Counted from the stretch's first letter, positions 32,361 through 55,469 are shown. The stretch: 64,000 bases of DNA from Patescibacteria group bacterium (GCA_041651195.1 JBAZJR010000001.1:135601-199600), one strand, 5' to 3'. Numbers and translations: made by a program. Notes: a model not told the origin generated them from the letters alone.

Positions 32361-32371
32361 AGCCAGACATT

Positions 32372-33623: not shown

Positions 33624-33672
33624 TTACGCAGACGATAATTAGATAATAATTAATCATCGAATAAAAAATCGT

Positions 33673-35802: not shown

Positions 35803-35809
35803 TAAAAAA

Positions 35810-35833
35810 TCTCCCCGGAGGGGGAGACTTTTA
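35810..35833 (+). terminator. rho-independent terminator
   Basis: tctcccc ggag ggggaga followed by cttttat. Confidence 0.7.
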
Positions 35834-35845
35834 TGATTCCGTTGT

Positions 35846-36011
35846 GGCCTTAAATATTGGAACCGAACTTGACATTAATATAATTATAGCATAAATATTT
35901 TTTTGGTCAAGACCGATATTTGGTGATTTTCCGGGTGTGGACCCGCGGAGAGTTGAGCTCCGGGAACCAAATGTCAAGTTCGGTTCCGAAGGCCGCTTCC
36001 GGGCCCACACC
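35846..36011. repeat. highly structured intergenic element (perfect 18-bp inverted repeats plus a competing helix)
   Basis: ggaaccgaacttgacatt (35859-35876) and aatgtcaagttcggttcc (35970-35987) are perfect reverse complements, extended by ggcctt/aaggcc. In addition, gggtgtggacccg (35933-35945) can pair with cgggcccacacc (36000-36011). Confidence 0.5.
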
Positions 36012-36082
36012 ATCAGTCAATATAACAAACTAAAGTTTAAAAATATCTTAAATTTTTCTAAACTCAATCCACACCTTAATTT

Positions 36083-36598: not shown

Positions 36599-36601
36599 AA
36601 G

Positions 36602-36610
36602 TGCTATAAT
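36602..36610 (+). promoter_or_regulatory. extended -10 promoter element (TGCTATAAT)
   Basis: It lies about 90 nt upstream of the 36697 start and may drive the minor-pilin operon. Confidence 0.4.
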
Positions 36611-36696
36611 TAAATCAGAAATAAAGGTTCCGGCGGCCTGGTTAAGAGACTTTAGCCGCCGAGTTTAAAGACTCGGGTAACCGAGCTAAATAGCGG

Positions 36697-38130: not shown

Positions 38131-38146
38131 CGGACTGATCAGGCCT

Positions 38147-38749
38147 ATGAATAAGCATATGAAAACCAGAGGCTTTACCTTGATTGAGATGGTTATCAGC
38201 ATCTCGATCATTTTGATGATCACCGTCTTATTCATCGTCAACTATCATTCCACAGATAAGCGGTCCGACCTGGTGATGGCCGCCCAGAATCTGGTCGCCG
38301 ATCTGCACTTGGCACAGAATAATACCTTGGGCCTGGTGAAATATAATGGCGATGCCGGCGGCGTGCCGCCCGGCGGCTGGGGGATAAGCTTCGATACCGG
38401 CAACAACGCCTATACGCTGTTCGCCGACCTAGACCGGCCGCCCGCGCCCGGCAGTCCTAGCCCGGGCTATATGAAATATGATCCGAGTTCGGAAGGGAAT
38501 ATCCGTTACGGCGCCCGCGTGACGCAGCTACCGTCCCAGATCGAAATCATGGAGCTCCGGACCGGCGGCGGCTTGCTTAATCCGCGCGTCAACGTGAGCT
38601 TTCTCCCGCCGGATCCGCAGACTAACATTTATCGGGTCGATACGGCCGCGACTTCGACCGTCCTAGAGATCAAGCTGCGCGAAACGCAGAGTAATTCTAC
38701 TAAGACCGTCCGGGTTAATTTCCTGGGCTTAGCTGAGGTCGTCGATTAA
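38147..38749 (+). CDS. prepilin-type minor pilin / pseudopilin
   Basis: MNKHMKTRG|FTLIEMVISISIILMI is a class III signal. Confidence 0.8.
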   Translation: MNKHMKTRGFTLIEMVISISIILMITVLFIVNYHSTDKRSDLVMAAQNLVADLHLAQNNTLGLVKYNGDAGGVPPGGWGISFDTGNNAYTLFADLDRPPAPGSPSPGYMKYDPSSEGNIRYGARVTQLPSQIEIMELRTGGGLLNPRVNVSFLPPDPQTNIYRVDTAATSTVLEIKLRETQSNSTKTVRVNFLGLAEVVD

Positions 38750-38753
38750 ATTT

Positions 38754-39242
38754 ATGAAAAGAGGCTTTTCCCTCGTGGAAATAATCACTATCCTATTTAT
38801 CATTTCATTGGGCCTGGTCGGCATCCTCTCTCTTCTGATTCAGAATATCCAGAGCCAGGGCTATAATAAGAATAACCTGATCGCCTACCAGCTGGCGCAG
38901 GAGGGAGTAGAATTGATCCGGAAAGTCAGGGATTCTAATTGGCGCACGGCGAACGAACCCCTGGACGAATTATTTACGGCCGGGCAATACTATATGGATT
39001 ATCTGGATAGCGAGCCGCAGCCGTATTCGGGTTCGCCCGCGCAGCTGGTCTTGAAGCAGGATGCGGCCGGTTTTTATTTCCACGATCTGGCGTCCACCGC
39101 GACAAGCAGCATCTTTTCGCGCCTCATCGTCTTACAAAATGTCAGCGCCGCTTCGGTCCGAGTCATCGTCCGGGTTTCCTGGGAGGATCGGGAGCGCAAT
39201 TACGCTTATGATTTGGAAACAATGCTCTACAATTGGCGCTAG
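38754..39242 (+). CDS. prepilin-type minor pilin / pseudopilin
   Basis: MKRG|FSLVEIITILFIISLG is a class III signal. The gap from the upstream gene is 4 nt. Confidence 0.8.
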   Translation: MKRGFSLVEIITILFIISLGLVGILSLLIQNIQSQGYNKNNLIAYQLAQEGVELIRKVRDSNWRTANEPLDELFTAGQYYMDYLDSEPQPYSGSPAQLVLKQDAAGFYFHDLASTATSSIFSRLIVLQNVSAASVRVIVRVSWEDRERNYAYDLETMLYNWR

Positions 39243-39297
39243 GCGTCCGGCTAAGGTCCGGGCGCGATTTCTCCGGAAGCGGGCCGATTCCTCCGCG

Positions 39298-39831
39298 ATG
39301 TCCGGTTTTTCTCTGATGGAAGTCGTGGTTTCCGTCTCGCTTTTCGTCGTGATCATCCTTTCGTCTACGGAAATCTTCAAATTGGTCATCGATAGCCAAA
39401 GGAGCGCGCTCGCGGCGCAGAATGTCCAGGAGAGCTTGAAATATTTTTTGGAAGTGATCGGCAAGGAGATCCGGATGGCCCAGGTCAATAAGGGGGTCTG
39501 CCCGCTCATTCCGCCCAGCAAGGTCTTCTTAGTGACCAGCGGGACTCTGGGCGACACGCTTTCTTTCAAGAATTATTATAACCAATGCGTGACCTACTCG
39601 CTGGTGGCCGACGGCTCTAACCAGCGTTTCCAGATCGCCCGCAATACCGCCGTTGATTTTATTTCGCCGCTCAAAGTCCAGATCGATAATCTCAACTTTA
39701 CTTTGAACGGAGGCGTCGGATCACAGTCGATGGTAACAGTCAATCTGCGGGCGCACGCGCTCGATGAAGCGAAATCCAAGTCGGATATGGTCATCCAGAC
39801 CAGCCTGACTTCGCGGTATTATAAGGAATAA
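39298..39831 (+). CDS. prepilin-type minor pilin / pseudopilin
   Basis: MSG|FSLMEVVVSVSLFVVI at the internal ATG 39298. The track ORF start at 39061 would overlap the previous gene out of frame. Confidence 0.7.
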   Translation: MSGFSLMEVVVSVSLFVVIILSSTEIFKLVIDSQRSALAAQNVQESLKYFLEVIGKEIRMAQVNKGVCPLIPPSKVFLVTSGTLGDTLSFKNYYNQCVTYSLVADGSNQRFQIARNTAVDFISPLKVQIDNLNFTLNGGVGSQSMVTVNLRAHALDEAKSKSDMVIQTSLTSRYYKE

Positions 39832-39835
39832 GATT

Positions 39836-40237
39836 ATGATGAGAATTGACCAGCTCCGTAAATATAGCCAAAAATATAGCCGAAAAGACAGGCCCGCCAG
39901 CGCGATGATCTTGACGATGTTTATCTTGTCCGGCATGCTGATCGTCGCGATGAGCGGCGCCTATGTCGTTTGGCTGGGCATCAAGGCCGGCGGCATCCAG
40001 GCGCAGTCGACCAAAGCCTACTACGCGGCCGAAGCCGGCGCGGAACGCCTGCTCTATGAATTGAATTATGGCGCCTTCGTTTATGAAGATCCGTCCACGG
40101 CCGTGATTTTCAGCGACACCCTGAATTCCGGCGCCGTTTATAATGATTATTTTATCTCTTCGCCGCCTCTGGTTTTCCAGGCAATCGGCGATTACCAGAG
40201 CACGAAACGGAGCGTAGAAATCCGTTTCGGAGATTGA
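39836..40237 (+). CDS. PilX-N-like minor pilus protein
   Basis: Basic N-terminus, a transmembrane helix (ILTMFILSGMLIVAMSGAYVVWL), then AYYAAEAGAERLLYEL as in PilX N-terminal domains. Confidence 0.55.
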   Translation: MMRIDQLRKYSQKYSRKDRPASAMILTMFILSGMLIVAMSGAYVVWLGIKAGGIQAQSTKAYYAAEAGAERLLYELNYGAFVYEDPSTAVIFSDTLNSGAVYNDYFISSPPLVFQAIGDYQSTKRSVEIRFGD

Positions 40238-40271
40238 TTTATTATTAGCTCTTTTTTAAGGGCTTTTTTGC

Positions 40272-40300
40272 TTGGCAAGCCGGGCGGGAAATGGTATAAT
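40272..40300 (+). promoter_or_regulatory. promoter with an extended -10 upstream of the first giant gene
   Basis: TTGGCA, a 17-nt spacer, then TATAAT preceded by TGg. Confidence 0.5.
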
Positions 40301-40338: not shown

Positions 40339-43300
40339 ATGCCTCGATTTCATAGGTGGCAATCAAAAATTATCATAGCCGTTTTATTATTAAGCGGTAG
40401 TTTTTTGTTATTCTCTGACGCAGAAAACGCGCAGGCCTATCACGCTACTTCCAGCTATAATAAAGCTTTTAATGATACCCTGACTTCTGAGAATTGGAAC
40501 GACCTGTTCAGCGATTTCGTTAATACCTGGCTCCCGGTTTCTCTGAACGGTCCGGTCGGCATCGCGACACCCGCGCCAGCGGCCGGGCTTAGCGTCAACG
40601 GACCGATTAATGCCACCAGATTATTTACGACCAGCAACGTCGGCATAGGGACGACAAATCCCGGCTCCAACTTGCATATTATCGGCAGCCTGGACGCGAC
40701 CGGCACGGTCAACGGCACCGGCCTTTGTATCGCCGGCGTCTGTAAGACCGATTGGAGCGTCGTCGGCGCGACAAGCGGCTGGACAATCAACGGGACGACG
40801 GTCTATAAGACTGATATTAATGGCAATGTCGGGATTGGGACGACTAATCCAGCCAATAAATTAACTATTGTTGGCTCTCCAGCCAGTACATGGGAAACAG
40901 CAACACTACGAGTCAACGGATCTGCAACCGAAGGGCTATGGTTCGGTTATAATACGACGAATGATGTCGGTTTGATCGGAGCGGCTGAAGATAATATTGC
41001 TCATAGAAATTTGTCCTTAGCGCCTACCGGCGGCAATGTTGGCGTCGGGACGACAGCGCCGACGCATAAATTAGAGGTCAATGGGAACATATCTATCAGC
41101 GGCTCCAGTCCGCAGACGCTTAGGATGGGGGCCGCAGCTACGCTTACTCGTGATACGACGACTGGCCTTACTACGCTGGCCACAAATAACTCTCATATCG
41201 CCCTCATGCCGGTAAATGGCAACGTCGGGGTGGGGACGACTGCGCCTAGTAGTAAGTTGCATGTTAATTTAGGAAGTACTGGTGCGTTAGGTTTTAACTC
41301 TGGACTTTGGATACAAAATAATTTTGGCGATGTAGCGACTAATCGTGGCGCAGGTATTACAATGCAAAATCACGATGTTTATGTAGGTGGTATTTATGCA
41401 ATCAGACCAGTTTCCAGTTGGAGGGGTGATTTGGCATTTTATACCCATAATGATAGCAGCGGAAATACTTTTGGAACCACTTTTACGGAAAAAATGCGGA
41501 TTCAATACGATGGCAACGTTGGGATTGGTATAACCAATCCGAGGGCGAAGTTGCAGGTTCTGGGAACCATACAGTCTGATGTGACTGAAGGCGGTAGCGC
41601 GTTTATAGCTAGAAATTCATCCGGAGTAAACCGGTTTGCCTTGAATACTATTTTAACCGGAGGATGGACCATGTATGACTTTGGCGGTAGCGCTTGGAAC
41701 GCCGGAATCTCTCAAGTAAATGGCAACGTCGGTATCGCCAAGACCAATCCCACCGCTACTTTAGATGTCACCGGCTCCATCAACGCTTCCGGCACGGTCA
41801 ACGGCACTGGCCTTTGTATTGCTGGTGATTGCAAGGTTTCCTGGCCGTCCATCGTCTCGGCTGGCGGCGGCAATCTCTGGAACGGCACGACGACCGGCGC
41901 GATCTGGAATGCTAATGGTGTTAACAATGTCGGGATCGGTAAAACTAATCCAGAAAATTTGCTTGACGTCGCTGGCGCGACAAAAGCTTATAATTATTTT
42001 ACCAATTCAAACAATGCAGGCTTTTTCGCAAGCGGGAACAATGATTACGGAACAGGCTTAATCAGTGATGCGTCTGATAATCTGTATTTGAGGGCCGGAG
42101 CGTCAAGTAATGGCAAGTTTACTTTATTAACTACCGGCAACGTCGGAATTGGGACGACAACCCCTATCCGTAATTTAGAAGTTAATTCCGGCAGCAGTGG
42201 AGTGGTGGCCCAATTTACTTCCAGTAATACTTCTAATAATTATTCTTTAGTTGACTTATATAATGCTAGTACTGGAAAATATTTTAGATTAGGTTTATTT
42301 GATAGTGGAGTCGCCGGTATCGGGGAGGGGTCCAGTATTATTCCTGATATTTCTATTAATTCATCCGGCAACGTCGGAATTGGGACGACTACGCCTTCTA
42401 ACAAGCTACATGTTTATGGTACATCTGGAAGACTTGCGGTTTTTGGTGATGTCGGAGTTTCTACCCCAACCGCGACTCCTGTTAATATTTCTTTCGGTTC
42501 AACATATGGAAATAGTACTCCAGGCAGTGTTAATAATTTAAAATGGGATTTGTTTTCCAGTAGTTCGTCTGGTAGTAGGTATGGTATAGGTATGTCGGCC
42601 AATTTAATGGAATTTCAGTCCGGTCCAAGTGGAGGATTGGGTTTCTTTGTAAACCAGGGAAGTGAAGCGATGAGGATTATTTCAAATGGCAACGTCGGCA
42701 TCTCTAAAACTAACCCCGGCGCCACTCTAGACGTCACTGGCTCCATCAACGCTTCCGGCACGGTGAACGGCACCGGCCTTTGTATCGCCGGTGACTGCAA
42801 AGTCTCCTGGCCGTCTATCGTCTCGGCCGGTGGAGGTAACTTATGGAACGGCACGACGACCGGCGCGATCTGGAACGCTAATGGCGCTAATAACGTGGGT
42901 ATCGGGACGACCGCGCCGGGAGCGAAGTTGGAAGTGAAAGACGGAGATGTCAAAATAAATAGTGGAAAACCAGTGGTAGATTTACGGGAATCTGACCAAA
43001 CATTGCCTGCTGGATTATGGCGGATTCAGACACAAAATAATCAGATGGGTTTTGTTCGTAATACGGCTGTGGCAGGAGATTTTTCTTCTGGTTTCACGCC
43101 TTTGTACTTTGATGCAAATAATTATGCGATTTTTAATGCAGGCAACGTCGGTATTGGGACGACTGCACCAGAAGCGAAGTTGGAAGTTGCAGGAAACATT
43201 AAAACGACAGGGGCAATATATAATTCTTATAAACAGTTTATATTTGACCCAGGTGCAGTTTCTACAAAATATACTCAATATCTTGGAACATTTAGTATTT

Positions 43301-46300
43301 CAAATGGAGTAGTTGAAATTATTATAGAAGATAGCGGAAATTCTCACGGTGCAAGTAGCTTTTTTAGAGTAACCCGTCACTATGACAGAACCCCTATTGT
43401 CCAAATCCAAAACAATGGACTAATGGGAGTTAATTATCAAATATACTATAGAAATTTGACACCAAATAATTATGAGTTATTTTTTGTTGATGGGAGAGCG
43501 AGTAATGGCAATAATGTCACATATAATGTATATACAAGACAACAAGGAGCTATTATCAGTGAAAGCATAAGTGCAGCTAATGACACCGGTATCAATTTGG
43601 CTAATATAGGAGTAGTAGTATCAGAATCCGGCAACGTCGGAATTGGGACGACGGGACCGAGTGAGAAATTGCATGTAAATGGTGGTAATATTCAGGTAAC
43701 AGGAGCTACTGATTCTGCTTATTTCAAAGCGCTTGACACCAGTAATGGAGTTCAGACTTGGTTTGGGGTCTCCTCGGCAGCAAGAGGTTTTATAGGGACA
43801 ATTACTAATCATGCTCTTGGTTTTAGAACAAATAATGCCGACAGACTGCTAATAGATGCTTCTGGCAACGTCGGTATCATGAAAACAAATCCCGGTACGA
43901 CCCTAGATATCGTCGGCGGCATCAACGCCTCCGGCACAGTGAATGGCACCGGCCTTTGTATCGCTGGAGTCTGCAAAACCGATTGGGGCGGCGTTGGCGC
44001 GACAAGCGGCTGGACGGTCAACGGCACGACGGTCTATAAGACTGATGTAAATGGGAATGTCGGGATTGGAGCGGTCGGCCCGGAATCTAAGCTAGAGATT
44101 TATGAGGCAACTCCGCTTGGCGGGACATTAGGAAATTATCAGATTTTAACAACGCTTCGAAGTCCGGGCGGATCAGGCGGTAATAATGTATATAATCGAA
44201 CGTGGTCACTTAGAGATGCTGCTGGAACGACTTGGACGACTTGGCGAGAGCATAACGGTCTAGGAATAGACACCTCATATGCTACCCCGTTGACGGATCG
44301 TGTATGGTGGGAAAGAGACCCGTATAATCAGATTCAGTCATGGGGCTCAGAGAGTTCTGCTTGGCTTACTATTAATAATGGCAACGTCGGCATCGGGACG
44401 ACTAATCCTCGGGCTCCTTTAGAAATTTATAAAGATGGCGCTGCTAACATTGGAAGTTTTTTGTTAGACCAGCCGACTATCCCTACTGGTTCAACTAGCA
44501 AAGGCCCACATTTTTTCTTTAAATCAGGTGGTATCGATAGGGGTTGGTTTGGTTTTTTTGACAACTCTGCTCATGGAAATGGTACGGCCCTGAATCTGCG
44601 TTCGGCAGGCGATGTTAGACTGGGCGCATCTATCGCCAATGCTCCAGATATGATTATAAAAGTAGGCGGCAACGTCGGTATCTCTAAAACTAACCCCGCT
44701 GCGACTCTAGACGTCACCGGCTCTATCAACGCTTCTGGCACAGTTAACGGCACCGGCTTATGCATCGGCGGCGACTGCAAGGTCTCCTGGCCGTCCATCG
44801 TCTCCGCCGGCGGCGGGAACCTTTGGAACGGCACGACCACTGGGGCGATCTGGAACGCGAATGGGACGAATAATGTGGGCATCGGGACGACGAATCCGGA
44901 TTATAAATTGGTAGTTAATGGCGGAAATTTGAGAATTAATGACGCTGGTTATTTGATGTTGACAAATGATGCTGAGGATTCACATATATATTTTCAAAAC
45001 ACGGGTACTTCGGCACAAAGACAGTTGGAAATTAAATATACTGGAGCAGGGACTCCAGTTATGGTCATAAATAATGCAGGCAACGTCGGCATCGGAACAA
45101 CAGCTCCGACCGAAAGACTGCAGGTCGCGGGCACTTTCGAAGCCCAGCAGTATAAATTGCCTAAGCAGTTTTATGGCCAGTATAATGATCTCTCAAACAG
45201 GATAGTCAGCACCGCGGCTTTTCAGGGTTGGTCTGACGCCTTTCAATCTAAGCCGATCAGCGATGTGGAATATTGGAACGGTAGCAGCTGGGTGGCTTGG
45301 ACGGATAAGGATATGACACCCTTGTTTAGCGGCAATCGGAGCACCTCCGTCCCTATCCCGGTAGACCGTTCCCGATTCCGCCTGACAGTCCAGGCTGGAT
45401 CTTGGTTCGGCGGCGGATTGCTTAATATTTATGAAGAATGGACCAGCGCGCATACCGGATATTCCTTCATCGTCGAAAGGAGCACCGATAAAGTTTCGTG
45501 GACGACGATAGACACCGGCACCGTTCCTAACGGCACTTATCAGGCCTATATCGCTAATTTGCCGCATGTCGTTGATGGTTATTTCAGAATCACTTTAGAT
45601 TTTGGGACGCTATCAGTCCCTCAGACCCTGGTTTGGATAAGAGCCCTGACTTCGAGGTTATCATACGGCGTCCAGCAGGGGTTGCCTCTCTCCACCTCCT
45701 ATAACAAAACCATAACTATGCAGGGTGGGCTAGTCGTACAAGGGACCAGCAATTCTTCAGTCGCTGGTAATTTAGGTATTGCCAAGACTAATCCAGGCAC
45801 GACCTTAGATGTTACCGGCTCCATCAACGCTTCCGGCACCGTGAACGGCACCGGCCTCTGTATCGCTGGCGATTGCAAGGTTTCCTGGCCAGCGATCATC
45901 GCGGCTGGCGGCGGCAACCTCTGGAGCGGCACGACGACCGGCGCGATCTGGAACGCGAATGGGACGAATAATGTGGGTGTCGGGACGACGGCACCGGGGG
46001 CTCGTTTGGAAGTCAAAGATGGTGGTACGGCCGGCTCCGTAGTTGCCTCTATACGACAAGATGATGACAGTACCTATGGGTTGGTTATTAATAATGGATC
46101 CTGGTCAGGGACCCTCACCAATGGTTTAAGGCAGTACGTTAATTTAGCGGGAACTTATGCCGCGATTGACCACTATGAGGCAGGGGGGGCAAAATTAATT
46201 TTGAATCCTAGCGGCGGCAACGTCGGCATCGGCACCACCGCACCCGTATATAAATTAGACGTCAACGGTCCAATAAGAAGCAACGCCACGGTTTTTGTGC

Positions 46301-47157
46301 CGTCTTTAACCGCCGATACCAGCGGCTATGGGCTTCGGGTAGGAAGCAGCTATGCCACCCAATTAGCTATGTCGTCTAATATGGGAGCTGATTTTGAAAT
46401 GATGCACAATACCTTAATTGAAAGAAATGCTGCGAATTCATCTGTTTATAAATGGGTAACCAGCCACGCATCCTTCGGTAGTCGAGGCATCCGTTTCGAT
46501 TATGGTGGGGCTGGGTCCGGCATCGTTTTTTTTGCTGATAGCGTTACTACAACCGCGGGCACCGCCTTTACTCCTACCCAGAGAATGATTATTCAGAATG
46601 ACGGCAATGTCGGTATAAATAAACTTTATCCTGGCACGACCCTTGACGTCACCGGCTCCATCAACGCTTCCGGCACGGTGAACGGCACTGGCCTCTGCAT
46701 CGGCGGCGACTGCAAGGTCTCTTGGCCATCTATCGTCTCGGCTGGCGGCGGCAATCTCTGGAACGGCACGACGACCGGCGCGATCTGGAATGCTAATGGG
46801 GTTAATAATGTCGGAATTGGGACAACGGCGCCGCTCGCGGCCCTGCATGTCAACGGCGGCTTGATCTTGAAGCGGACAACGGTTGCGGATACGGATTATA
46901 CCGCTCAAGCTACGGATTATATCATCGGCTATAGTTCGCTCAGCACGAACCGGACCGTCACTTTGCCTGACGCCTTATGCACGCCGGGACGTTTCTTCGT
47001 TGTCTTAGATGAGAGCGGCAGCGCCTCTAACGCCGTCAAGATCATCATCAATCCGGAAGGCGCGACGCCGATCGTCGGGCAGGCGAGCTTTTCCTTGTCC
47101 GGTCCTTATAATTCCGTCTATGTTTTCTGTGGCAGTTCGGCCTGGTATGTGTTATAA
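40339..47157 (+). CDS. giant secreted repeat protein (2272 aa), tail-fibre-like [10 protein letters not shown] repeats plus Cys-loop modules
   Basis: Uninterrupted 6.8-kb ORF with signal peptide ending AQA|Y. By eye there are about 24 copies of (G/N)NVGIGTTxPxxKL(E/D/H)V and 7 copies of the [10 protein letters not shown](A/G)G(D/V)CK module. It also has a jelly-roll-like insert and a unique C-terminal domain. Confidence 0.92.
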   Translation: MPRFHRWQSKIIIAVLLLSGSFLLFSDAENAQAYHATSSYNKAFNDTLTSENWNDLFSDFVNTWLPVSLNGPVGIATPAPAAGLSVNGPINATRLFTTSNVGIGTTNPGSNLHIIGSLDATGTVNGTGLCIAGVCKTDWSVVGATSGWTINGTTVYKTDINGNVGIGTTNPANKLTIVGSPASTWETATLRVNGSATEGLWFGYNTTNDVGLIGAAEDNIAHRNLSLAPTGGNVGVGTTAPTHKLEVNGNISISGSSPQTLRMGAAATLTRDTTTGLTTLATNNSHIALMPVNGNVGVGTTAPSSKLHVNLGSTGALGFNSGLWIQNNFGDVATNRGAGITMQNHDVYVGGIYAIRPVSSWRGDLAFYTHNDSSGNTFGTTFTEKMRIQYDGNVGIGITNPRAKLQVLGTIQSDVTEGGSAFIARNSSGVNRFALNTILTGGWTMYDFGGSAWNAGISQVNGNVGIAKTNPTATLDVTGSINASGTVNGTGLCIAGDCKVSWPSIVSAGGGNLWNGTTTGAIWNANGVNNVGIGKTNPENLLDVAGATKAYNYFTNSNNAGFFASGNNDYGTGLISDASDNLYLRAGASSNGKFTLLTTGNVGIGTTTPIRNLEVNSGSSGVVAQFTSSNTSNNYSLVDLYNASTGKYFRLGLFDSGVAGIGEGSSIIPDISINSSGNVGIGTTTPSNKLHVYGTSGRLAVFGDVGVSTPTATPVNISFGSTYGNSTPGSVNNLKWDLFSSSSSGSRYGIGMSANLMEFQSGPSGGLGFFVNQGSEAMRIISNGNVGISKTNPGATLDVTGSINASGTVNGTGLCIAGDCKVSWPSIVSAGGGNLWNGTTTGAIWNANGANNVGIGTTAPGAKLEVKDGDVKINSGKPVVDLRESDQTLPAGLWRIQTQNNQMGFVRNTAVAGDFSSGFTPLYFDANNYAIFNAGNVGIGTTAPEAKLEVAGNIKTTGAIYNSYKQFIFDPGAVSTKYTQYLGTFSISNGVVEIIIEDSGNSHGASSFFRVTRHYDRTPIVQIQNNGLMGVNYQIYYRNLTPNNYELFFVDGRASNGNNVTYNVYTRQQGAIISESISAANDTGINLANIGVVVSESGNVGIGTTGPSEKLHVNGGNIQVTGATDSAYFKALDTSNGVQTWFGVSSAARGFIGTITNHALGFRTNNADRLLIDASGNVGIMKTNPGTTLDIVGGINASGTVNGTGLCIAGVCKTDWGGVGATSGWTVNGTTVYKTDVNGNVGIGAVGPESKLEIYEATPLGGTLGNYQILTTLRSPGGSGGNNVYNRTWSLRDAAGTTWTTWREHNGLGIDTSYATPLTDRVWWERDPYNQIQSWGSESSAWLTINNGNVGIGTTNPRAPLEIYKDGAANIGSFLLDQPTIPTGSTSKGPHFFFKSGGIDRGWFGFFDNSAHGNGTALNLRSAGDVRLGASIANAPDMIIKVGGNVGISKTNPAATLDVTGSINASGTVNGTGLCIGGDCKVSWPSIVSAGGGNLWNGTTTGAIWNANGTNNVGIGTTNPDYKLVVNGGNLRINDAGYLMLTNDAEDSHIYFQNTGTSAQRQLEIKYTGAGTPVMVINNAGNVGIGTTAPTERLQVAGTFEAQQYKLPKQFYGQYNDLSNRIVSTAAFQGWSDAFQSKPISDVEYWNGSSWVAWTDKDMTPLFSGNRSTSVPIPVDRSRFRLTVQAGSWFGGGLLNIYEEWTSAHTGYSFIVERSTDKVSWTTIDTGTVPNGTYQAYIANLPHVVDGYFRITLDFGTLSVPQTLVWIRALTSRLSYGVQQGLPLSTSYNKTITMQGGLVVQGTSNSSVAGNLGIAKTNPGTTLDVTGSINASGTVNGTGLCIAGDCKVSWPAIIAAGGGNLWSGTTTGAIWNANGTNNVGVGTTAPGARLEVKDGGTAGSVVASIRQDDDSTYGLVINNGSWSGTLTNGLRQYVNLAGTYAAIDHYEAGGAKLILNPSGGNVGIGTTAPVYKLDVNGPIRSNATVFVPSLTADTSGYGLRVGSSYATQLAMSSNMGADFEMMHNTLIERNAANSSVYKWVTSHASFGSRGIRFDYGGAGSGIVFFADSVTTTAGTAFTPTQRMIIQNDGNVGINKLYPGTTLDVTGSINASGTVNGTGLCIGGDCKVSWPSIVSAGGGNLWNGTTTGAIWNANGVNNVGIGTTAPLAALHVNGGLILKRTTVADTDYTAQATDYIIGYSSLSTNRTVTLPDALCTPGRFFVVLDESGSASNAVKIIINPEGATPIVGQASFSLSGPYNSVYVFCGSSAWYVL
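40690..40850 (+). repeat. Cys-loop module, type B copy (…[31 protein letters not shown])
   Basis: It recurs at 43903-44070, 49204-49320, 50224-50400 and 50926-51105 (approximate bounds). Confidence 0.75.
41761..41939 (+). repeat. Cys-loop module, type A copy ([54 protein letters not shown])
   Basis: The protein sequence is nearly invariant across copies at 42727-42905, 44707-44885, 45805-45984 and 46642-46820. The DNA differs mostly at third codon positions. Confidence 0.85.
42727..42905 (+). repeat. Cys-loop module, type A copy
   Basis: See 41761-41939. Confidence 0.85.
43903..44070 (+). repeat. Cys-loop module, type B copy
   Basis: See 40690-40850. Confidence 0.75.
44707..44885 (+). repeat. 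Cys-loop module, type A copy
   Basis: See 41761-41939. Confidence 0.85.
45805..45984 (+). repeat. Cys-loop module, type A copy
   Basis: See 41761-41939. Confidence 0.85.
46642..46820 (+). repeat. Cys-loop module, type A copy
   Basis: See 41761-41939. Confidence 0.85.
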
Positions 47158-47202
47158 TCATAGTAATAATAAAGCGGACGGGAAATCCGCGCGGGTTATA
47201 TT

Positions 47203-50200
47203 ATGAAGTTTAGAATCATAAATTTAAAGAGAGCGGCAGTCCTCAGTTTTTTTGGTATCCTCAGCCTCTTTTTCGGCCTGTCTGGCGCCGAAGCCGCTTT
47301 CATAACTTCCGGCGGTTCGCAATGGACCGATGTCTCCGGGGGGATCTATTATAATAGTAATGTGGGTATTGGGACGACTAGTCCGGGAAGTGGGAAGTTG
47401 CAGGTTTTGTCCAGTGTTAATTCTTTGTATCCGACAATAGGATATTTTGAATGGAACGGCACGACAGGACTCCCCCATTTTGTGTTAAGGAATAATTCTG
47501 CGAGCACCAGCACTAACAGCATGGTATTGCAAATATGGGGGAACAATAGTTCTGGTGTGGCTAAATTTAATAATATTGTTTTTAATGCAGATAATTTATC
47601 ATATAGCTTCAACGGTAACGCTACGCAGTATAGTTTTGCCAGCAACGTCGGCATCGGAAAGACTAATCCCGGCACTACTTTAGACGTCACCGGCGGCATC
47701 AGCGCTTCCGGCACGCTTAACGGCACTGGTCTCTGTATCGGCGGCGATTGCAAGGTCAGCTGGACCTCTATCGTCGCGGCGGGCGGCCTGCCTGTTGGCA
47801 CGAACGGCCAGACGATCGCAAACAGTAGCGGTTCCTGGGTAGCCAGCTCCAATCTTTTTAATAATGGCACGAATGTCGGTATCGGGACGACGAATCCGAG
47901 GCAGAAATTAGAAGTTAATGGAAACATCAGTTTAGGTATGCAATCTACCACTGGCGCTGGGACTCCATATGAAAAGTTTATTGGAACGGTGAATTTGGAT
48001 GGTAATCCAGGCGCTGGTGGAATGTTTATTGAGCAAGATGCCAATGGAAATAACTATTTAAAGTTTCGGGTTTTAGAAGCAGGAGTTGCATATCGTGATC
48101 CTGTAACCATTAATTACACGGGCAACGTCGGTATTATGAAAACCAATCCCAGCACGACCCTAGATGTCGTCGGCGGGATCAGCGCTTCCGGCGCGGTGAA
48201 TGGCACCGGCTTATGCATCGGCGGGGACTGTAAGACAACTTGGCCGACAATCGTCCAGGCCGGCATGCCGACTGGCACGGCCGGACAGACTTTGCGGAGC
48301 GACGGGACGCAATGGCTGACTAGTTCCACGATATTTAATAATGGCACGAATGTGGGGATCGGGACGACTAATCCGGGACAAAAATTGGATGTTGTCGGGA
48401 CTGGCAAATTTTCTACTAACGTTGAAGCGCAAGTCGCCGTAAAAGCGAAGGATTATTTACTAATCGATAGCGATGGAGATTTTACTGGCAGTAATTATTG
48501 GACATTTAGCCAAGATTCCAGTACTCGCCATCTAGAATTCGATTACGGAGGAGTGGGCTCGAGCGAAAAGGTAGTATTTACGAGCAGCGGAAACGTCGGT
48601 ATACAAACTATCGGTCCTCGCGCGCCGTTAGAAGTAGACGCTAACGATGGGAGTGGTGTTAGCATTCTGGCATCTAATATTATAGAAATAGCCGGGTATA
48701 GAGATGTTGCTCAATCATCATCGGTCACTGTCAGTAGCGGGAATTTAATGTATGGCGGACCAACAGCAAAAAATGGCAAGGGATATTGGCAAATCTCATC
48801 TTTTCCGGCTACGATTACTTTAGATACTCGTGGTTGGTGGTCTTATCCCGGCATATCGTTTACTGCCGAGAATGTCCATAATTATCCAAGCGGGGGAGGG
48901 AGAAAATTACCAGCCAGCTTTTTAGTAGAAATGAGTAATGACGGATCGAATTGGTGGACTGTTGATGACGTAACTAACCAGACTTCCGCTTTATATTATA
49001 AAAGTGAACAAAGTGGTTCCGGGAAATATGTTAGAATAACCGCGAGGGCGCCGCAGTCGGGTGAAACGTCAAGCAGTATTGCTAATATACAATTATTTCA
49101 AACTTATAGAGCTGGCAAGGGCCCATTTACGGTATCGCCAGAAGGGAATGCCGTTTTCATAGGCGGCAATGTTGGTATAGGAAAGCAAATTCCTATGGCT
49201 ACTTTAGATGTCGTTGGTGGCGGCAACTTTACTGGCACGGTGAACGGCACCGGCCTCTGTATCGCCGGCGTCTGTAAGACCGACTGGAGCGGCGTCGGCG
49301 CGACGAGCGGTTGGAGCAGTGATGCCGCAGCTATCTACGCCGCTGATACTACCGATAATGTCGGAGTGGGGACGACTAATCCGGTCGGAAAATTTGATGT
49401 CCGGACTTATGGCGGCGATGCCAGGATCACTTTTTCTAGCACCGATGATGAATATCCGCGGATGTATCTAGGCGGAGATAGCGCCAGCATCGCCGGAGTG
49501 ATCAATCGCAAGTCTAACGCGACGCTTTATTTCGGTGAAGAATCTGATACCGGCGGCTATGTTTTCCGGGGAACCGGTGGCTACTCTTTCGCTGGCAGCC
49601 GGCTATCCCTATCTTCCGGTGGCAACGTCGGCGTCGGCACTACGAATCCCTTATCTAAATTTGAGACTTATAATGGCAACATCGGCGTTGCTAATAATGT
49701 CGCCTCCGGCGCTAACGCGAGCGGGCTTATTTTCTATCATACCGCCGGCTTAGGCAGCAATTGGTACTCCGGCCTGGTCCCGTATGTGACGACCAGCTAC
49801 GACCGGGTCGGTTTGAAATTCTTGACCGCGAATTCGGGCGCGGCTACGGAGAAGATGGCGATTACGCCGGATGGGAATGTGGGGATTGGGACGACGGCAC
49901 CGGGGGCGAAACTTGAAGTTTTAGGAGATCACCAAGCAATCCGCGCGCGAGGGACAGCTACTAGTACAAATTGGTCGGGCAGAATTATCGCGGGTGGTCC
50001 CAATGTCGCATTTTTAATGGGTGAATATAACACTATGGCGTGGCTTGGAGCTCATAACGCAGCTCTTAGTGCTTGGTCGGATTTTTATATTAATCCAGAC
50101 GGAAGTAATAAATTGTATCTCGGTGGTACTGGCGATGGTAATCCGGCTACGCTTAATCCAATCGTAACTGTTAATAACGCAACCGGTAACGTGGGCATCG

Positions 50201-52506
50201 CCAAAACTAGTCCCGCCGCGACTCTGGACGTCACTGGCTCTATCAACGCCTCCGGCACGGTCAACGGTACCGGCCTCTGCATCGCTGGCGTCTGTAAGAC
50301 GGACTGGGGCGGCGTCGGCGCGACAAGCGGCTGGACGATCAACGGGACGACGGTCTATAAGACTGATACAGCGGGAAATGTGGGGATTGGGACGACGAAT
50401 CCGACAGCAAAGATGGAGTTAGTTTCCAATGATGCAAATCCTAGCTTGTATATAAATACTGGTGCAAGTCAAACCGGCAATTTGATTTCTGGAAAAGTAA
50501 ATGGAGATCAAAGATTTTATTTCAATTCGGATGGAGATCTGTATTTTTCAAAAGGTTCGGCTGCGCATATTTATAATGATGCATCGGGCGGTCTTGGACT
50601 AAGTGGAAGGAGCACACTAAGTGATATATATCTTAATGGTACGGGCAACGTCGGGATCGGCACGACCACGCCAACGTATAAATTAGATGTTAACGGCACT
50701 TCTCGTTTCCGGTCTACAGGTTTATTTGACGGCAATTTAACTACTTATGGCACGTTAACAACCGCCTCAAACCTCATTGCTAATTTTGGAGCGACTATTA
50801 ATAATAATGGCGGCGCTACTGCCTCTTATGATTTTGGCGTCAAGAATGGTCTGAGTGGATATTCTTTGTATGCGCAAGCTTCATCTGGCAATGTCGGCAT
50901 TGCCAAAACTAATCCCACCGCTACTTTAGACGTTACTGGCAGTATCAACGCTTCCGGCACGGTTAATGGCACCGGTTTATGCATTGGCGGAGTATGTAAG
51001 ACCGACTGGGGTGGCGTGGGCGCGACGAGCGGCTGGACGATCAATGGGACGACGGTCTATAAGACTGATACGGCTGGGAATGTCGGGATTGGGACGACGG
51101 ATCCAAGCTCAAAGTTTCATGTTGTCGGGAATTCATACTTAAATGGGACATTGAATGTTTCAGGGAATACTTCATTTTCTGGCAATACGCATAATTTTTA
51201 TCAGTCGGTAAGCCCTTATAGTACTCTTAATATTGGAAGATCTGGTATGCAGCGTTTTTCCATGACAGTAAATGATATGACTGGAACCATGACATCCTAT
51301 CAACAAGATGAGACCACGGGCGATCATATTTGGGCTTTTGATATTGTCTCTTCGACTTCCGGCCGCCAAGACTACAGGTTTAGAAATAATGGTTCTGAAC
51401 TTTTTGCCATTGATAAAGTTGGCAACGTCGGCATCGGCAAGACTAACCCCGGTTCGAACCTCGACGTCACCGGTAGTGTCGCTGCTTCTGGCACCGTGAG
51501 CGGCACGAGCCTTTGTATCGCCGCTGATTGCCGGGCGGCCTGGCCTACCGGTGGTGATGGCGGGATAACCTCTATTAACGGCTTGACCGATTTGACCCAG
51601 ACTTTTGCGACCGGCACTTCGGGCACGGATTTTGGGATTTCTTCTTCCGGAACAATCCATACTTTCAACCTGCCTTCCGCTTCCGCCGCTAACCGCGGCC
51701 TCTTGACCGCTGCGGACTGGAGCAGTTTTAATGCTAAAGTCTCCAGCCAATGGACGACTAACGCTTCCGGCATCTACTATAGTTCCGGTAACGTCGGCAT
51801 CGGGAAGACCAATCCCGCCGCGAACCTGGACGTTGTCAGCAGCATCAACGCTTCCGGCACGGTGAACGGCACGAGCCTCTGTATCGGCGGCGATTGTAAA
51901 GCGAGCTGGGCGGCTTGGACCAATAGTGGCGTTAATATGTACAGCAGTAATTCTGGCAACGTCGGCATCGGTATAACCAATCCGGCCGCGAAATTGGATG
52001 TGGGCGGCGTGGTTAACGCGACCGGCGCTTCCTTGTCCGGCGATTTGAATATGAACGGCTATGATATTACCAATATTGATAAACTCTATGTCGGCACGAT
52101 CGACCCGCTCTATAAGTTAAATGGCGTCAATTACGCGACCTATGCCGCCTCTGTCGCCGGCGGCGTCAAGGAAGAATATACCGGTCGGATCAAGCTGAGC
52201 CGTCAGAACGCGGCTGGAGAATATGAGGCGGCTATTGATTTTACCGCCGTAGCCGAGGGCGGCGATCTCTGGGTTTGGCGGCGGATTGTTGACTTTGATC
52301 GGGACAACATCGAGGTCTTGATCAGCCCCTATGGCCGATTAGCCCAGATTTATTATATAATAGAAGGAGAGAAGATTATCTTCCGATCCAATCGTCCGGT
52401 TGAAGCTTCCTATCGTCTGACTGGCAAACGCTTTGACTGGCGCGACTGGCCGACTCGCCCTGCGGATCAGACGCTGCAAGGCCGGGAGGTCGAATTACCG
52501 AACTAA
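47203..52506 (+). CDS. giant secreted repeat protein (1767 aa), paralogous architecture with an F5/8-type-C-like insert
   Basis: 5.3-kb ORF that starts 45 nt after the first giant, with signal peptide ending AEA|A. By eye there are about 18 [10 protein letters not shown] motifs and 7 Cys-loop modules (at about 47680, 48160, 49204, 50224, 50926, 51460 and 51825). A discoidin-like block lies at about 48700-49105. Confidence 0.92.
49204..49320 (+). repeat. Cys-loop module, type B copy
   Basis: See 40690-40850. Confidence 0.7.
50224..50400 (+). repeat. Cys-loop module, type B copy
   Basis: See 40690-40850. Confidence 0.75.
50926..51105 (+). repeat. Cys-loop module, type B copy
   Basis: See 40690-40850. 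Confidence 0.75.
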
Positions 52507-52570: not shown

Positions 52571-53263
52571 ATGGACAACAAACCAATGGACAGCAAGCCA
52601 GCGGAGAGTAGCGCCAAGAAGATTTGGATCCTCTTGGGTGCGCTGGTCGTGATCGTGATCATTATCATTATTGCGGCTACTCAGGGGAAGAAGGCCCCAG
52701 CCCCGACGGAAAACACGCCGGCGGCCGGAGGTGAGACAACGGAAACCGGAGAGACGACGCCGGGGGCCGCTGAGACCGGTGCCGAAGCGCCGGTTCAGAA
52801 TCTGGAAGACAGCAAGGTCTATAGCCTCGATAACGCTCAGGCAGCCATCCCGGGCGCGAGCTTAGTCACGGCGGGAGAGAACAAGGTCGTGACGCCGGAA
52901 GGCAAGGCCGTCAAGAATGACGCTATCCCGAATAGTCCGGAGGCGCCGAAGCCGGTCTTAGTCGCTAAGGATCAATTGCCGGCGACCAGCATCAAGCTGG
53001 ACATCGGCAATGGGAAGATTACTCCGAGCTCGTTTACGGTGACTTCCGGCCAGGTCGTTAATCTGGCGGTTTCTTCGACGGACGGCCAGGTGCACGTCTT
53101 CATCTTCACTAATTCCGCGGTCGGCGCGATCGCGATGGGCGTCGGCGGCGGCGAAACCAAGGCCATTACTTTTAACGCTCCAGCAGCCGGCACTTACGAG
53201 TTCCGCTGCGATGTCCCCGGACACAAGGAAAAGGGCGAAGTCGGGACGATGATCGTCAAATAA
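52571..53263 (+). CDS. membrane-anchored cupredoxin-domain protein
   Basis: N-terminal transmembrane segment, a Pro/Glu/Thr/Ala linker, and a C-terminal block GQVHVFIF...AGTYEFRCDVPGHKEKGEVGTMIVK. This resembles the Cupredoxin_1 pattern (H ... YxFxCxxPGH...G). Confidence 0.7.
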   Translation: MDNKPMDSKPAESSAKKIWILLGALVVIVIIIIIAATQGKKAPAPTENTPAAGGETTETGETTPGAAETGAEAPVQNLEDSKVYSLDNAQAAIPGASLVTAGENKVVTPEGKAVKNDAIPNSPEAPKPVLVAKDQLPATSIKLDIGNGKITPSSFTVTSGQVVNLAVSSTDGQVHVFIFTNSAVGAIAMGVGGGETKAITFNAPAAGTYEFRCDVPGHKEKGEVGTMIVK

Positions 53264-53287
53264 CAATAGAGATTTCCGCAAAGATAA

Positions 53288-53315
53288 AACATCCGCTTTC
53301 GGGCGGATGTTTTTA
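53288..53315 (+). terminator. rho-independent terminator
   Basis: aacatccgc tttcgg gcggatgtt followed by ttt. This is the first convincing terminator after the promoter at 40272. Confidence 0.65.
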
Positions 53316-53373
53316 TATAGGAAAATATGCTATGATTACCATATATATACGCTAGCCATAATATAAGCTAGCC

Positions 53374-54870
53374 ATGCTTATGCCTCATTTTCCGTCGCTC
53401 GCGCGCAAATTATTTTTTATCTTCATCATCGTCATCGTTTTTGCTATCCCGCTGTCGCTCAGCGTCCTTGATTGCGCGCCGTCGCCCGTCCTTGATCAAT
53501 CGCCTTCGCTGACCGCGACCGCCGACTCGGTCAACTCGGCTGATCCGGTTAACTCGATTAATCCGGTGGGGCCCTCCGTCACGATTGGATCGTCCGCCAC
53601 AATCGAATCAGTCGCATCGTCAGCGTCGTCATCGGTGTTCGTATCGCCCGCATCGTCAGAACCGGCCGGATCGTCTGAAACAGATGAGCCGCAATATTTC
53701 AGTTCATTCGCTTATAGCTCGGTCAATTTTTATTTGGAAGATAGCGCCATCCGTTTTGATAACGATCTGCGCGGCCTGTCTTTCTATCCTGATGTCGAGA
53801 CCCGCGCCGCCGCGAGCCGGGAATTGGACGCTGCCGCCAAGAAATATTTGTCCGAATTCAAGTTGAATCCCATAGACGGGTCATTTTCTGATCGCCGCTG
53901 TCTGGGCGATAATTGCTTAGAACAAGAGGGACCTGCGTTATCCTATAATGGAGAGCCGCTGGCTCTGCCAGCCGGGGTCAAAGAGGCGGATATCGCTGTC
54001 GTTTCTATCGCCGCTCTTAAGAAGATCTGGCTGATCGGCTTTACTTTGCAAGACGGTGAAAATTACCGCGGCCGCGCTTTCAGTTTTGACGGACGAACTA
54101 TGGCTGAGATAATCCTGCCCGCGCCAGTCACTTCGCGCTACCGGGGGATCTTCGGTTTCGGCGGCGAAGATAATGATTTTTTAGTGCTTTACAGCGCGGA
54201 CCAGGGAACCGCCTACCGGATCAAGACCGGCCAGTTTACCGAAGCGATAAATATCAGCCGTTTTTTCAATATCCGGGGGCAGAGCGCTTCTTTCAAGGCG
54301 GAGGCGATCAAAGTCGCTAGCGGCCGCGAGGTCGATTGGTATATTTTCAGTTCGACCTTGTCCCGTCCGCGGCTCTTGAAGTTATGGCAGAACCGCACAA
54401 CGGAAATCGTCGGCGCGATTTCTTTTGAAAATTTTCCCGGCAGCCAGGGAACATCAGCTGTCTTTAAGAAGCTGTCATTCGGATCGGGTGAGATAAGATT
54501 AGCCGCCCTGGTCCGGGACGGGAGCGGCCGGGATGATTGGCAGATCTTTGCCGACCGGGGATTTAAGAATAATAGTTCTGCTTCGCTTCTGACCGTGCCG
54601 CTCGGCTCGCTGGCCGAGGGCGGACAGTTCCGGATCGTCAGCATCGCGCATAGCGCGCTGGAGGTCGATGCTTCCGGGCGCGCCGCGGTCAAATGGCTTT
54701 TTTCTTCGGATCACGATAATTGGCGGGCCGTGCCCTTGGGTCGGAATCTTGAGTTCGAAATTCCGCTGACCGGCTCTTATTTTTTCCGCCTGGATTTTTC
54801 CGCCGCGTCGGATAAATTTTTTTCTCCTTTCATCGGAGCGATTTTCTTTGATTATTATTTTCAGAAGTGA
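53374..54870 (+). CDS. membrane-anchored hypothetical protein with a Ser-rich linker
   Basis: 498-aa ORF with an N-terminal transmembrane segment, a low-complexity (D/S)(S/P)VNS and Ser-rich stretch, and a large C-terminal domain of unknown family. Confidence 0.65.
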   Translation: MLMPHFPSLARKLFFIFIIVIVFAIPLSLSVLDCAPSPVLDQSPSLTATADSVNSADPVNSINPVGPSVTIGSSATIESVASSASSSVFVSPASSEPAGSSETDEPQYFSSFAYSSVNFYLEDSAIRFDNDLRGLSFYPDVETRAAASRELDAAAKKYLSEFKLNPIDGSFSDRRCLGDNCLEQEGPALSYNGEPLALPAGVKEADIAVVSIAALKKIWLIGFTLQDGENYRGRAFSFDGRTMAEIILPAPVTSRYRGIFGFGGEDNDFLVLYSADQGTAYRIKTGQFTEAINISRFFNIRGQSASFKAEAIKVASGREVDWYIFSSTLSRPRLLKLWQNRTTEIVGAISFENFPGSQGTSAVFKKLSFGSGEIRLAALVRDGSGRDDWQIFADRGFKNNSSASLLTVPLGSLAEGGQFRIVSIAHSALEVDASGRAAVKWLFSSDHDNWRAVPLGRNLEFEIPLTGSYFFRLDFSAASDKFFSPFIGAIFFDYYFQK

Positions 54871-54944
54871 TATAATTAGCTTAGCCTGTAAATAGGTCTA
54901 AATTTAGTTAAATAAATATAAAATTTAAAAATAACCTCATTATT

Positions 54945-55445
54945 ATGAGCAAAAAAACTTATCTTTGGCTGGGAGTGGCGATCATCATCGTCATCGCGGC
55001 CGTCTATGTTTTAGCCTCGCTGAACTACCCGGGCGCTAACGGCCAATACGGGAGTCAGGAGCCAGGCGCTAAGACCGGGGTCAATCCCGCGGCCTTAAAC
55101 GCCGAGAACGCCGCGGCTCTCAAGAAGAGCGAAGTCTTGCCAGGTTACGCGACGGAAAGCGCTTCAATCGAACAGGCGCCGATGATCATCGTCGTGGATG
55201 AAAAATCTTTCAGCCCGAAAAATCTGAAAGCCAAGATCAACTCCAAGGTCACTTTCGTCCTTGAAGCTTCAGATGAAGAGACTCATTCTTTGTCTTTCTC
55301 GGATAAGGTCTACGCCTATATCAAGGATGTTGAGTTCTCTAAAGAGGGCGGCCGGAAATCCATAACTTTCCCGGCTAACGTCAAAGGAGTTTATAATTTC
55401 TATATCGATCAGGAGAGCAATAAGGGAACTTTGGCAGTCGAGTAG
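54945..55445 (+). CDS. membrane-anchored cupredoxin-like protein lacking Cys/His copper ligands
   Basis: It aligns by eye with the C-terminal domain of 52571-53263 (THSLSFSD..., KGVYNFYIDQESNKGTLAVE). The Cys and the PGH His are replaced. Confidence 0.5.
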   Translation: MSKKTYLWLGVAIIIVIAAVYVLASLNYPGANGQYGSQEPGAKTGVNPAALNAENAAALKKSEVLPGYATESASIEQAPMIIVVDEKSFSPKNLKAKINSKVTFVLEASDEETHSLSFSDKVYAYIKDVEFSKEGGRKSITFPANVKGVYNFYIDQESNKGTLAVE

Positions 55446-55469
55446 CGTTTAATTTTTTAAAATACCCTT

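Follow-up and report, generated by a model that had tools for sequence, protein, structure and literature searches.

Two adjacent genes in a 64,000-nt stretch of the genome of a Patescibacteria group bacterium (hereafter the window, to which all coordinates refer) encode giant proteins, A and B, which together contain 14 copies of a unit built around a pair of cysteines. Within the gene region (40339-52506) this Cys unit is almost invariant as protein while its synonymous sites have drifted apart. Our preferred interpretation, held with moderate confidence, is that the unit is a conserved structural joint, stapled by a disulfide, in giant adhesins that form mosaic fibres. A and B would be Sec-exported chains of beta-helical units, with a capping loop at the start of each unit and a swappable C-terminal tip. 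The Cys unit would start with the capping loop, continue with a short beta segment and a tight beta-hairpin of the form G-L-C-I-x-G-D-C-[KR]-x-S-W, and end in a short tail; the hairpin cysteines, facing each other across the strands, would most likely form a disulfide staple. The unit would serve as a constant joint or frame, and the hypervariable, compositionally foreign units on either side of it would probably carry the binding specificity. Purifying selection on the protein would keep it nearly unchanged as synonymous sites drift; being a dispersed direct repeat, it would also be a substrate for occasional short conversion and for block-duplicating unequal crossover. How ultrasmall episymbiotic Patescibacteria recognize and attach to their hosts is poorly understood, and this locus places giant, phage-tail-fibre-like mosaic fibres beside minor pilins.

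A motif scan detected exactly 14 C-x4-C loops, seven in each protein, in line with the approximately 14 modules, seven per protein, and the positions proposed in a first-pass annotation of the sequence; the coordinates given there fall within the 198-nt copy registers of Table 1, mostly at the L of 'LDV'. The scan and a 14-copy alignment also bore out the type A tail, the type B tail (TDW(S/G)GVGATSGWT(I/V)NGTTVYKTD) and the four variants that had been described. The loop spacing had been miscounted as C-x-x-x-C; the actual loop is C-x4-C, reading C-I-[AG]-[GA]-[DV]-C. The aligned copies share 13 invariant columns at a mean column identity of 63%. The natural unit extends from one GNVGI capping motif to the next, which is 63-67 amino acids in most copies, and the start of the module, GNVGIxKTNPxxxLDV, is a special case of a generic capping motif (GNVGIG...P...L.V) that is not module-specific. 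With 24 occurrences of this motif in A and 18 in B, both proteins can be described as chains of units running from capping motif to capping motif. The Cys unit is one recurrent type in these chains; it comes every 3-5 units, its copies being dispersed 120-390 amino acids apart, and its loops account for all 14 cysteines of B and for 14 of the 16 in A. The modules (e.g. 41722-41919) also carry nearly invariant N-x-S/T sequons (INAS, VNGT, and WNGT or INGT in the tails); these are not kept in distant homologues and could be glycosylation sites or a mere product of the N/T/S/G-rich composition of the fibre.

Divergence among the window copies was estimated pairwise by the Nei-Gojobori method. Type A pairs, at 79-86% nucleotide and 86-97% amino acid identity, had a synonymous divergence (dS) of 0.53-1.20 and a non-synonymous divergence (dN) of 0.028-0.090, giving dN/dS ratios of 0.02-0.17; the ratio was 0.05-0.24 for type B pairs. 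Per 66 codons, pairs of copies showed 20-31 synonymous and 4-12 non-synonymous differences. Unit A815, for example, is 97% identical to A1475 and A493 in amino acids and 85-86% identical in nucleotides. With dN/dS far below 1 and DNA that is not near-identical, the earlier proposal of a protein conserved by purifying selection while synonymous sites differ is substantiated. As a calibration we used the single-copy genes that flank the locus, comparing the window with the locus of a syntenic relative, L096 (ERZ27247363 k141_2537534). These flanking orthologues have a dS of 0.9-2.6 and a dN of 0.15-0.34, against which the type A paralogues of the window have a lower mean dN (0.056) at a similar or somewhat lower mean dS (0.83). 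This combination marks the Cys unit as the most constrained sequence of the locus, and its copies as old on the scale of species divergence. Unit B338 and its positional orthologue L96b341 share 88% of their amino acids (identity 0.88) at a dN/dS of 0.10. Saturation or active diversification of the synonymous sites was ruled out, as identical codons are used at 52-70% of conserved sites, where 34-43% would be expected.

The two cysteines are kept or lost together. Among 432 units that span the loop columns, from 151 proteins, both cysteines were present in 218, one in 7 and neither in 207; the pair, whose invariance the first-pass annotation had proposed to check in orthologues, is essentially invariant in homologues, and its members co-vary. 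A tryptophan at +4 accompanies the pair in 209 of the 218 two-cysteine units, and the loop consensus is G-L-C-I-[GAS]-G-D-C-[KR]-x-S-W. We found the loop in 58 of the top 150 representatives and in 65 of 241 fetched proteins. It occurs in several Patescibacteria lineages, two metagenome-assembled genomes (MAGs) of Acidobacteriota, a MAG of Aenigmatarchaeota (DPANN) and the cultured predator Halobacteriovorax sp. CON-3, which also has the variant represented by B1438. Pfam-A and NCBIfam profiles matched nothing in A and nothing covering the modules in B, a search with a 46-aa loop-only profile, which is too short, returned no significant match, and a literature search on the motif strings and on tail-fibre-like adhesins of Patescibacteria yielded no description of the unit.

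An AlphaFold2 model built from an alignment of 55 module copies (predicted local distance difference test score, pLDDT, 71.6) contains two strands, residues 39-41 and 44-46, joined by a two-residue A-G turn, and according to DSSP Cys40 and Cys45 lie on the facing strands. Non-hydrogen-bonded cross-strand pairs in hairpins are favoured disulfide sites; in the model Cys40 and Cys45 appear to be such a pair, and we predict that they are bonded. Among the roles that had been put forward for the loop (a disulfide-stapled knob, a metal- or ligand-binding site, a trimerization node), the model favours, though not decisively, a cross-strand disulfide in a beta-hairpin. In a local Foldseek superposition, not globally significant, the first ~31 residues of the module fit structures of the mosaic adhesive trimer (MAT) family (8onf, 8ol4) at 1.2 Å.

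Several lines of similarity place A and B among fibre proteins. Both N-termini, as read from the sequence, resemble Sec-type signal peptides, and residues 1-110 of A are 68-78% conserved with other Patescibacteria fibres. Both proteins match PHROG tail fibre profiles (phrog_9942, E 6.8e-57 for A; E 2.6e-28 for B), and their sole sequence relatives in the PDB are the Bdellovibrio fibres 8ond (Bd2133, E 3.4e-8 over 176 residues) and 8ojn (Bd3182, E 3.8e-4). Bdellovibrio MAT proteins are trimeric beta-helical fibres with swappable tips, divided into S74 and non-S74 subgroups, and their capping-loop consensus is V-G-G/N-pi-x-x-P-x-x-x-L (Caulton et al. 2024, PMC10769870). By their sequences A and B appear to be of the same broad kind as the Bdellovibrio MAT and the phage S74-type fibres. 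Many of the 1152 homologues carry Peptidase_S74 or the name 'tail fiber domain-containing protein'; a Pfam scan found no Peptidase_S74 domain (PF13884) in A or B, which would fall in a non-S74 subgroup of MAT-like fibres. The idea that Cys units replace the S74 chaperone was not supported (S74 in 3/17 loop homologues vs 38/103, Fisher P=0.17).

The two proteins end in different tips. The tip of A contains the only two cysteines of this protein that do not belong to a loop, both of them nearly invariant among homologues, and it stands at the extreme C-terminus in 18/18 homologous fibres. Its AlphaFold2 model (pLDDT 90.9) resembles attachment domains of phage tailspikes and baseplates in Foldseek searches, namely Acinetobacter phage Solidus gp83 (E 6.7e-4), the N-terminal region of CBA120 TSP4, and T4 gp9 and gp10. 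The tip of B is of a second type. In 11 of 16 homologues (identity up to 73%) this domain reaches the C-terminus or stops ~10 residues or fewer short of it; the five weakest matches are internal. No Pfam or NCBIfam family was assigned to A. The sole match in B was a sub-threshold one, to F5/8 type C (discoidin, galactose-binding-like), at residues 558-627 (48874-49083) within a 192-aa unit; it falls below the Pfam cut-off and would fit a carbohydrate-binding insert of an adhesin.

The fibre genes are mosaics in base composition as well as in sequence. The Cys units have a G+C content at third codon positions (GC3) of 0.59-0.76 (~0.68), close to the 0.65-0.70 of the housekeeping genes in the window (e.g. 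23740-25545 and 30567-33577). The other internal units range from 0.23 to 0.68, all but one at ≤ 0.58, with many at only 0.2-0.45, and local 30-codon windows outside the Cys units reach values as low as 0.07 (e.g. A residues 870-1170). By this comparison the codon usage of the Cys units is native, unlike that of the other units. Identities, determined by unit-wise and ungapped searches because long gapped high-scoring segment pairs blur local identity and make the gapped BLAST profile uninformative, follow the same division. The best external match was 89-92% for the ten type A and B copies and 39-75% for the four variants, as compared with mostly 26-47% for the other internal units; the best paralogue was 77-97% identical for type A/B copies and 63-75% for variants, vs 28-55% for other internal units at a match coverage of 45% or more. 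Relative to L096, the flanks of the locus align at 70-77% nucleotide identity, and within the fibre genes the alignment is mostly limited to the 5' end, the modules and the 3' ends, plus one internal block of B (49346-49896). Some non-Cys units are common to otherwise dissimilar fibres, i.e. A279-429 with P0161, A672-806 with P0174 and A1094-1193 with P0166, at 65-74% ungapped identity. The low GC3 of the variable units suggests that these are imported or differently evolving cassettes. Elsewhere in the window lies a probable integrated mobile element, a low-GC island (~8700-18500; core genes with GC 0.30-0.36 and GC3 0.23-0.39) that adjoins a tRNA-Ser(TGA) gene (8761-8848) and encodes a Bro-N protein, a rolling-circle/pSAM2-type Rep and a large serine recombinase, along with a PMT_2 glycosyltransferase and an NYN nuclease. 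Since low-GC3 DNA is demonstrably foreign in this island, import of the variable fibre units is plausible.

Recombination among the modules has left traces. Units A493 and A2120 share an exact tract of 68 nt, the longest run common to type A or type B copies, which covers 16 concordant polymorphic sites (permutation P<0.001); most exact runs between copies are 19-35 nt. Global permutation tests for mosaic tracts gave P 0.0008 for type A and 0.006 for type B, and type A copies are somewhat closer within the genome (nucleotide identity 0.79-0.86) than between genomes (0.73-0.81). A larger event is recorded in the sister strains. The fibre P0151, from the locus L002 (JBAZJV010000001.1), equals P0007 of L096 plus an exact tandem block of 560 amino acids (1680 bp). 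Within the middle type A module of P0151 the DNA changes partner at a 14-nt stretch, TGGAATGCGAATTC, that lies at the module's 3' end: ahead of this stretch the module is identical to the downstream copy, and thereafter to the upstream one. This switch identifies an unequal crossover inside a type A module as the source of the duplication in the sister lineage. An artefact of de Bruijn assembly is unlikely, because the two parental modules have no exact run >20 nt in common. Occasional conversion and module-mediated unequal crossover thus do occur, and the mapped crossover illustrates one concrete way in which such fibre genes can change length between strains. The first-pass annotation had argued against gene conversion and recent duplication. 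Wholesale recent conversion is indeed excluded by the nucleotide identity of the copies, but they are not fully independent, given the shared tract, their closeness within the genome and the crossover.

These observations raise the question of whether the module is kept mainly as DNA homology for shuffling, duplicating and importing variable units, its role in the protein being secondary. The crossover in a type A module, the conversion-like tract, the alternation of native-GC3 modules with low-GC3 units and the isolated units shared with unrelated fibres would all fit such recombination joints. Selection on DNA homology, however, would keep synonymous sites, yet dS is 0.5-1.2 and exact runs are mostly short; the boundaries of the shared units lie at generic GNVGIG caps and not at Cys units specifically, so that cassettes bounded by Cys units in particular were rejected; and the strict co-occurrence of Cys, Cys and Trp across phyla is a signature at the protein level. 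We consider this explanation unlikely. The same holds for a broader proposal, in which the Cys units would be both periodic covalent 'rivets' and constant linkers of a cassette-exchange system, the locus acting as a pilus-linked, phage-like site of host-range diversification. Three hairpins per node might then form a disulfide ring or staple that locks the register of a >2000-residue fibre in place of an S74 chaperone, and modules of native composition, together with the caps, might provide the homology for duplicating or importing foreign binding cassettes in episymbiotic Patescibacteria; such cassettes would also be present in predatory and DPANN lineages. In this combined form the proposal is improbable.

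A further possibility is that the loops, singly or three on the fibre axis, bind a metal (e.g. Cu or Fe) or a host ligand, which would make each fibre multivalent with seven nodes. The invariant Cys pair has a conserved Asp and a Trp nearby, and the fibre genes are followed by genes for cupredoxin and MopE-type copper-motif proteins in the window and in L096, and by one for a cupredoxin in L095. Axial metal ions also occur in phage fibres, iron in T4 gp37 and zinc in T4 gp12. Against a metal site, each chain offers two thiols only and no conserved His, the predicted i/i+5 cross-strand geometry of the hairpin suits a disulfide, the Asp is replaced by Val in type B copies, no similarity to a metal-binding family of Pfam or NCBIfam was seen, and the link to copper proteins is one of neighbourhood only. 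We regard this role as quite improbable. Concerted evolution, i.e. copies that resemble each other through ongoing conversion or recent duplication and not through selection on each, is very unlikely and, as a main cause, largely refuted: the mosaic tracts, the slightly greater closeness of paralogues than of cross-genome copies, codon identity above the random expectation and the recent block duplication in a relative would agree with it, but conversion would even out synonymous sites too, whereas the nucleotide identity of the copies is just 79-86% with mainly synonymous differences, codon identity is no higher within the window (0.56) than when the window is compared with L002 (0.55), and the first module, A130, is closest to its positional orthologue in L096 (nucleotide identity 0.86), not to its paralogues.

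The interpretation of the Cys unit as a disulfide-stapled joint has to be weighed against several points. The unit was absent from the phage and viral collections: a tblastn search with the module against INPHARED phages gave no match, and 18 loci from an IMG/VR scan all had the generic capping motif only, none with the Cys loop. The proposed trimeric state consequently derives from the homology of the generic parts. The module model is a monomer of moderate confidence, with pLDDT 63-75 around the loop, and Foldseek of this model against the PDB gave nothing at E<0.1 and no significant neighbour for the hairpin. Two HMMER alignments disagree on where the loop falls in Bd2133, one placing it on a beta-helix rung and the other on the linear stalk before the tip, which makes its place along the fibre uncertain. 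The window ORFs (open reading frames) that were scanned include no Dsb or VKOR gene, and extracellular disulfides are less certain to form in anoxic water, the habitat of many Patescibacteria. Finally, the low GC3 of the variable units could result from relaxed codon selection instead of foreign origin. As a practical matter, G-L-C-I-x-G-D-C-[KR]-x-S-W following a GNVGIG cap is a sequence handle with which such fibres can be found, their variable cassettes delimited and constructs designed.

The features of the locus are compiled in Table 1. Gene A encodes a signal peptide, 24 capping-loop units, seven Cys-hairpin units and its C-terminal tip domain; gene B encodes a signal peptide, 18 capping-loop units, seven Cys-hairpin units, the weak discoidin-like insert and the different tip. 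A corresponds to the Patescibacteria group bacterium MAG protein WC456_00830 at NCBI, with 100% identity across 99% of its length, and a second Patescibacteria group bacterium MAG protein, WC456_00835 (P0004), is identical to B; the ENA contig that matches B also codes for a 2272-aa protein immediately upstream. With these matches, and a longest exact run of only 68 nt, an assembly error is an unlikely source of the repeats. Minus-strand ORFs of 100-230 amino acids overlap seven of the modules (40455-40790, 42615-42953, 44571-44882, 45699-46016, 46438-46908, 47349-48044 and 51372-51773). They are most likely a by-product of the GC-rich third codon positions of the modules and not genes, since substitutions in the modules track the codon structure of the plus frame.

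Table 1. Features of the fibre locus, in coordinates of the 64,000-nt window.
Feature	Coordinates	Strand	Remarks
Four minor-pilin-like genes	38147..40237	+	Pfam N_methyl and NCBIfam prepilin-type matches; motif scan
Sigma-70-like promoter match	40272..40300	+	TTGGCA-17-TATAAT with TG; best of the region; consensus match only
Fibre gene A	40339..47157	+	2272 aa; ORF call and translation
Cys-hairpin unit A130	40633..40830	+	type B tail; loop CIAGVC
Cys-hairpin unit A493	41722..41919	+	type A; loop CIAGDC
Cys-hairpin unit A815	42688..42885	+	type A
Cys-hairpin unit A1207	43864..44061	+	type B
Cys-hairpin unit A1475	44668..44865	+	type A; loop CIGGDC
Cys-hairpin unit A1841	45766..45963	+	type A
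Cys-hairpin unit A2120	46603..46800	+	type A
C-terminal tip domain of A	46834..47154	+	aa 2166-2272
Second sigma-70-like promoter match	47129-47158		upstream of B; consensus match only
Fibre gene B	47203..52506	+	1767 aa; ORF call and translation
Cys-hairpin unit B178	47641..47838	+	variant tail
Cys-hairpin unit B338	48121..48318	+	variant tail
Cys-hairpin unit B686	49165..49362	+	diverged type B
Cys-hairpin unit B1026	50185..50382	+	type B
Cys-hairpin unit B1260	50887..51084	+	type B
Cys-hairpin unit B1438	51421..51618	+	variant
Cys-hairpin unit B1560	51787..51984	+	short variant
C-terminal tip domain of B	51973..52503	+	aa 1591-1767; second tip type

The gene order in the window is pilM, pilB, pilC, two major-pilin genes, FemAB, YbeY, a 477-aa protein, four minor-pilin-like genes, A and B, followed by two cupredoxin-domain proteins and a protein with the MopE (copper) motif. 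The blocks syntenic with related loci lie at 33643-40237 and 52571-58784. No phage or prophage structural genes surround A and B in this chromosomal window, the neighbours being pilins, FemAB, YbeY, cupredoxins and ThrRS. Prepilin motifs of the minor-pilin-like genes lie at 38171, 38763 and 39304, and the fourth gene is a 133-aa PilX-like ORF (39836-40237). A terminator-like hairpin (40247-40264) precedes the promoter-like site of A.

The arrangement recurs in relatives. L096 and L095 repeat the order FemAB, YbeY, ~480-aa protein, four small genes of minor-pilin size, giant fibre genes and cupredoxin; minor-pilin-like genes were recognized as such in the window and in L096, L095 being matched by gene order, not by pilin motif. 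In L001, L004 and L007, 1-3 prepilin-motif genes lie ahead of the giant gene. The order conserved across Patescibacteria loci begins with the major pilins and includes 2-5 giant fibre genes with cupredoxin-domain proteins after them, and the MopE copper-motif protein is found in the window and in L096. As is the case for PilY1/PilC-like tip adhesins, A and B are large Sec-dependent non-pilin proteins encoded with minor pilins. The fibres may act together with the type IV pilus and occupy a place like that of PilY1; no Pfam or NCBIfam match to the C-terminal beta-propeller of PilY1/PilC was obtained in A or B.

Three further observations concern this neighbourhood. The tandem major-pilin genes (33643-34101 and 34199-34675) have identical N-terminal segments, KGFTLIELLVVIAIIGLLSTLSILALN, which are also present in pilin genes of another locus, L003. 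In L096 the minor-pilin genes are separated from the first fibre gene by an insertion that carries an AbiEii-like toxin gene and an 83-aa ORF (5790-6401 of that locus). Further downstream in the window (59006-61111) lies the gene of a 701-aa protein with He_PIG and Big_9 Ig-like domains and a Por_Secre_tail, the C-terminal sorting signal of type IX secretion (E 2.7e-11); its GC3 of 0.44 is atypical, and such a signal is unexpected in a Patescibacteria genome.

Among known systems, the S74-type tail fibres and tailspikes of phages (e.g. the K1F endosialidase stalk and T5 pb1) resemble A and B in their PHROG profiles (9942, 18345 and 3269), in the capping motif, which also occurs in viral contigs, and in the tip of A with its likeness to tailspike and baseplate attachment domains. 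They differ from A and B, which lie in a chromosomal context free of phage genes, have no S74 domain and contain a Cys-hairpin unit absent from the INPHARED and IMG/VR matches examined. The His-boxes of T-even gp37, short conserved motifs between variable fibre segments, reportedly have a structural function and also act as sites of recombination at which the fibre is reshuffled. The alternation of short conserved motifs with variable segments is common to gp37 and our fibres, whereas a C-x4-C hairpin stands in place of HxH iron sites, there is no sequence relationship, and the role in recombination here amounts to one duplication in a relative.

A surface protein of Gracilibacteria, which like our organism belong to the candidate phyla radiation (CPR), has a PTD tripeptide repeat that is conserved in amino acids and variable in synonymous nucleotides, for which its authors suggest a suppression of slippage (PMC6851277). 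The repeat forms a tandem, microsatellite-like array with a 9-nt period in a coil, unlike the dispersed, folded units of 63-67 amino acids in A and B. The closest counterparts are the MAT fibres Bd2133 and Bd3182. A and B are about twice as long, lack the S74 chaperone, are encoded next to minor-pilin genes of a monoderm-like CPR bacterium and have, in A, a C-terminal tip of gp9/gp10/TSP4-like fold; no Cys-hairpin unit is reported in the MAT paper, the only disulphide mentioned in its text being that of the Bd1334 tip (PMC10769870). In common with these fibres they have significant sequence similarity, a signal peptide, a long fibre of beta-helical units, interchangeable tips and mosaic evolution, and their capping motif, repeated at the start of each unit, fits the MAT consensus. 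Like Bdellovibrio bacteriovorus, the host of the MAT fibres, for which an interplay with type IV pili has been raised as a possibility (PMC10769870), our organism lives on other bacteria.

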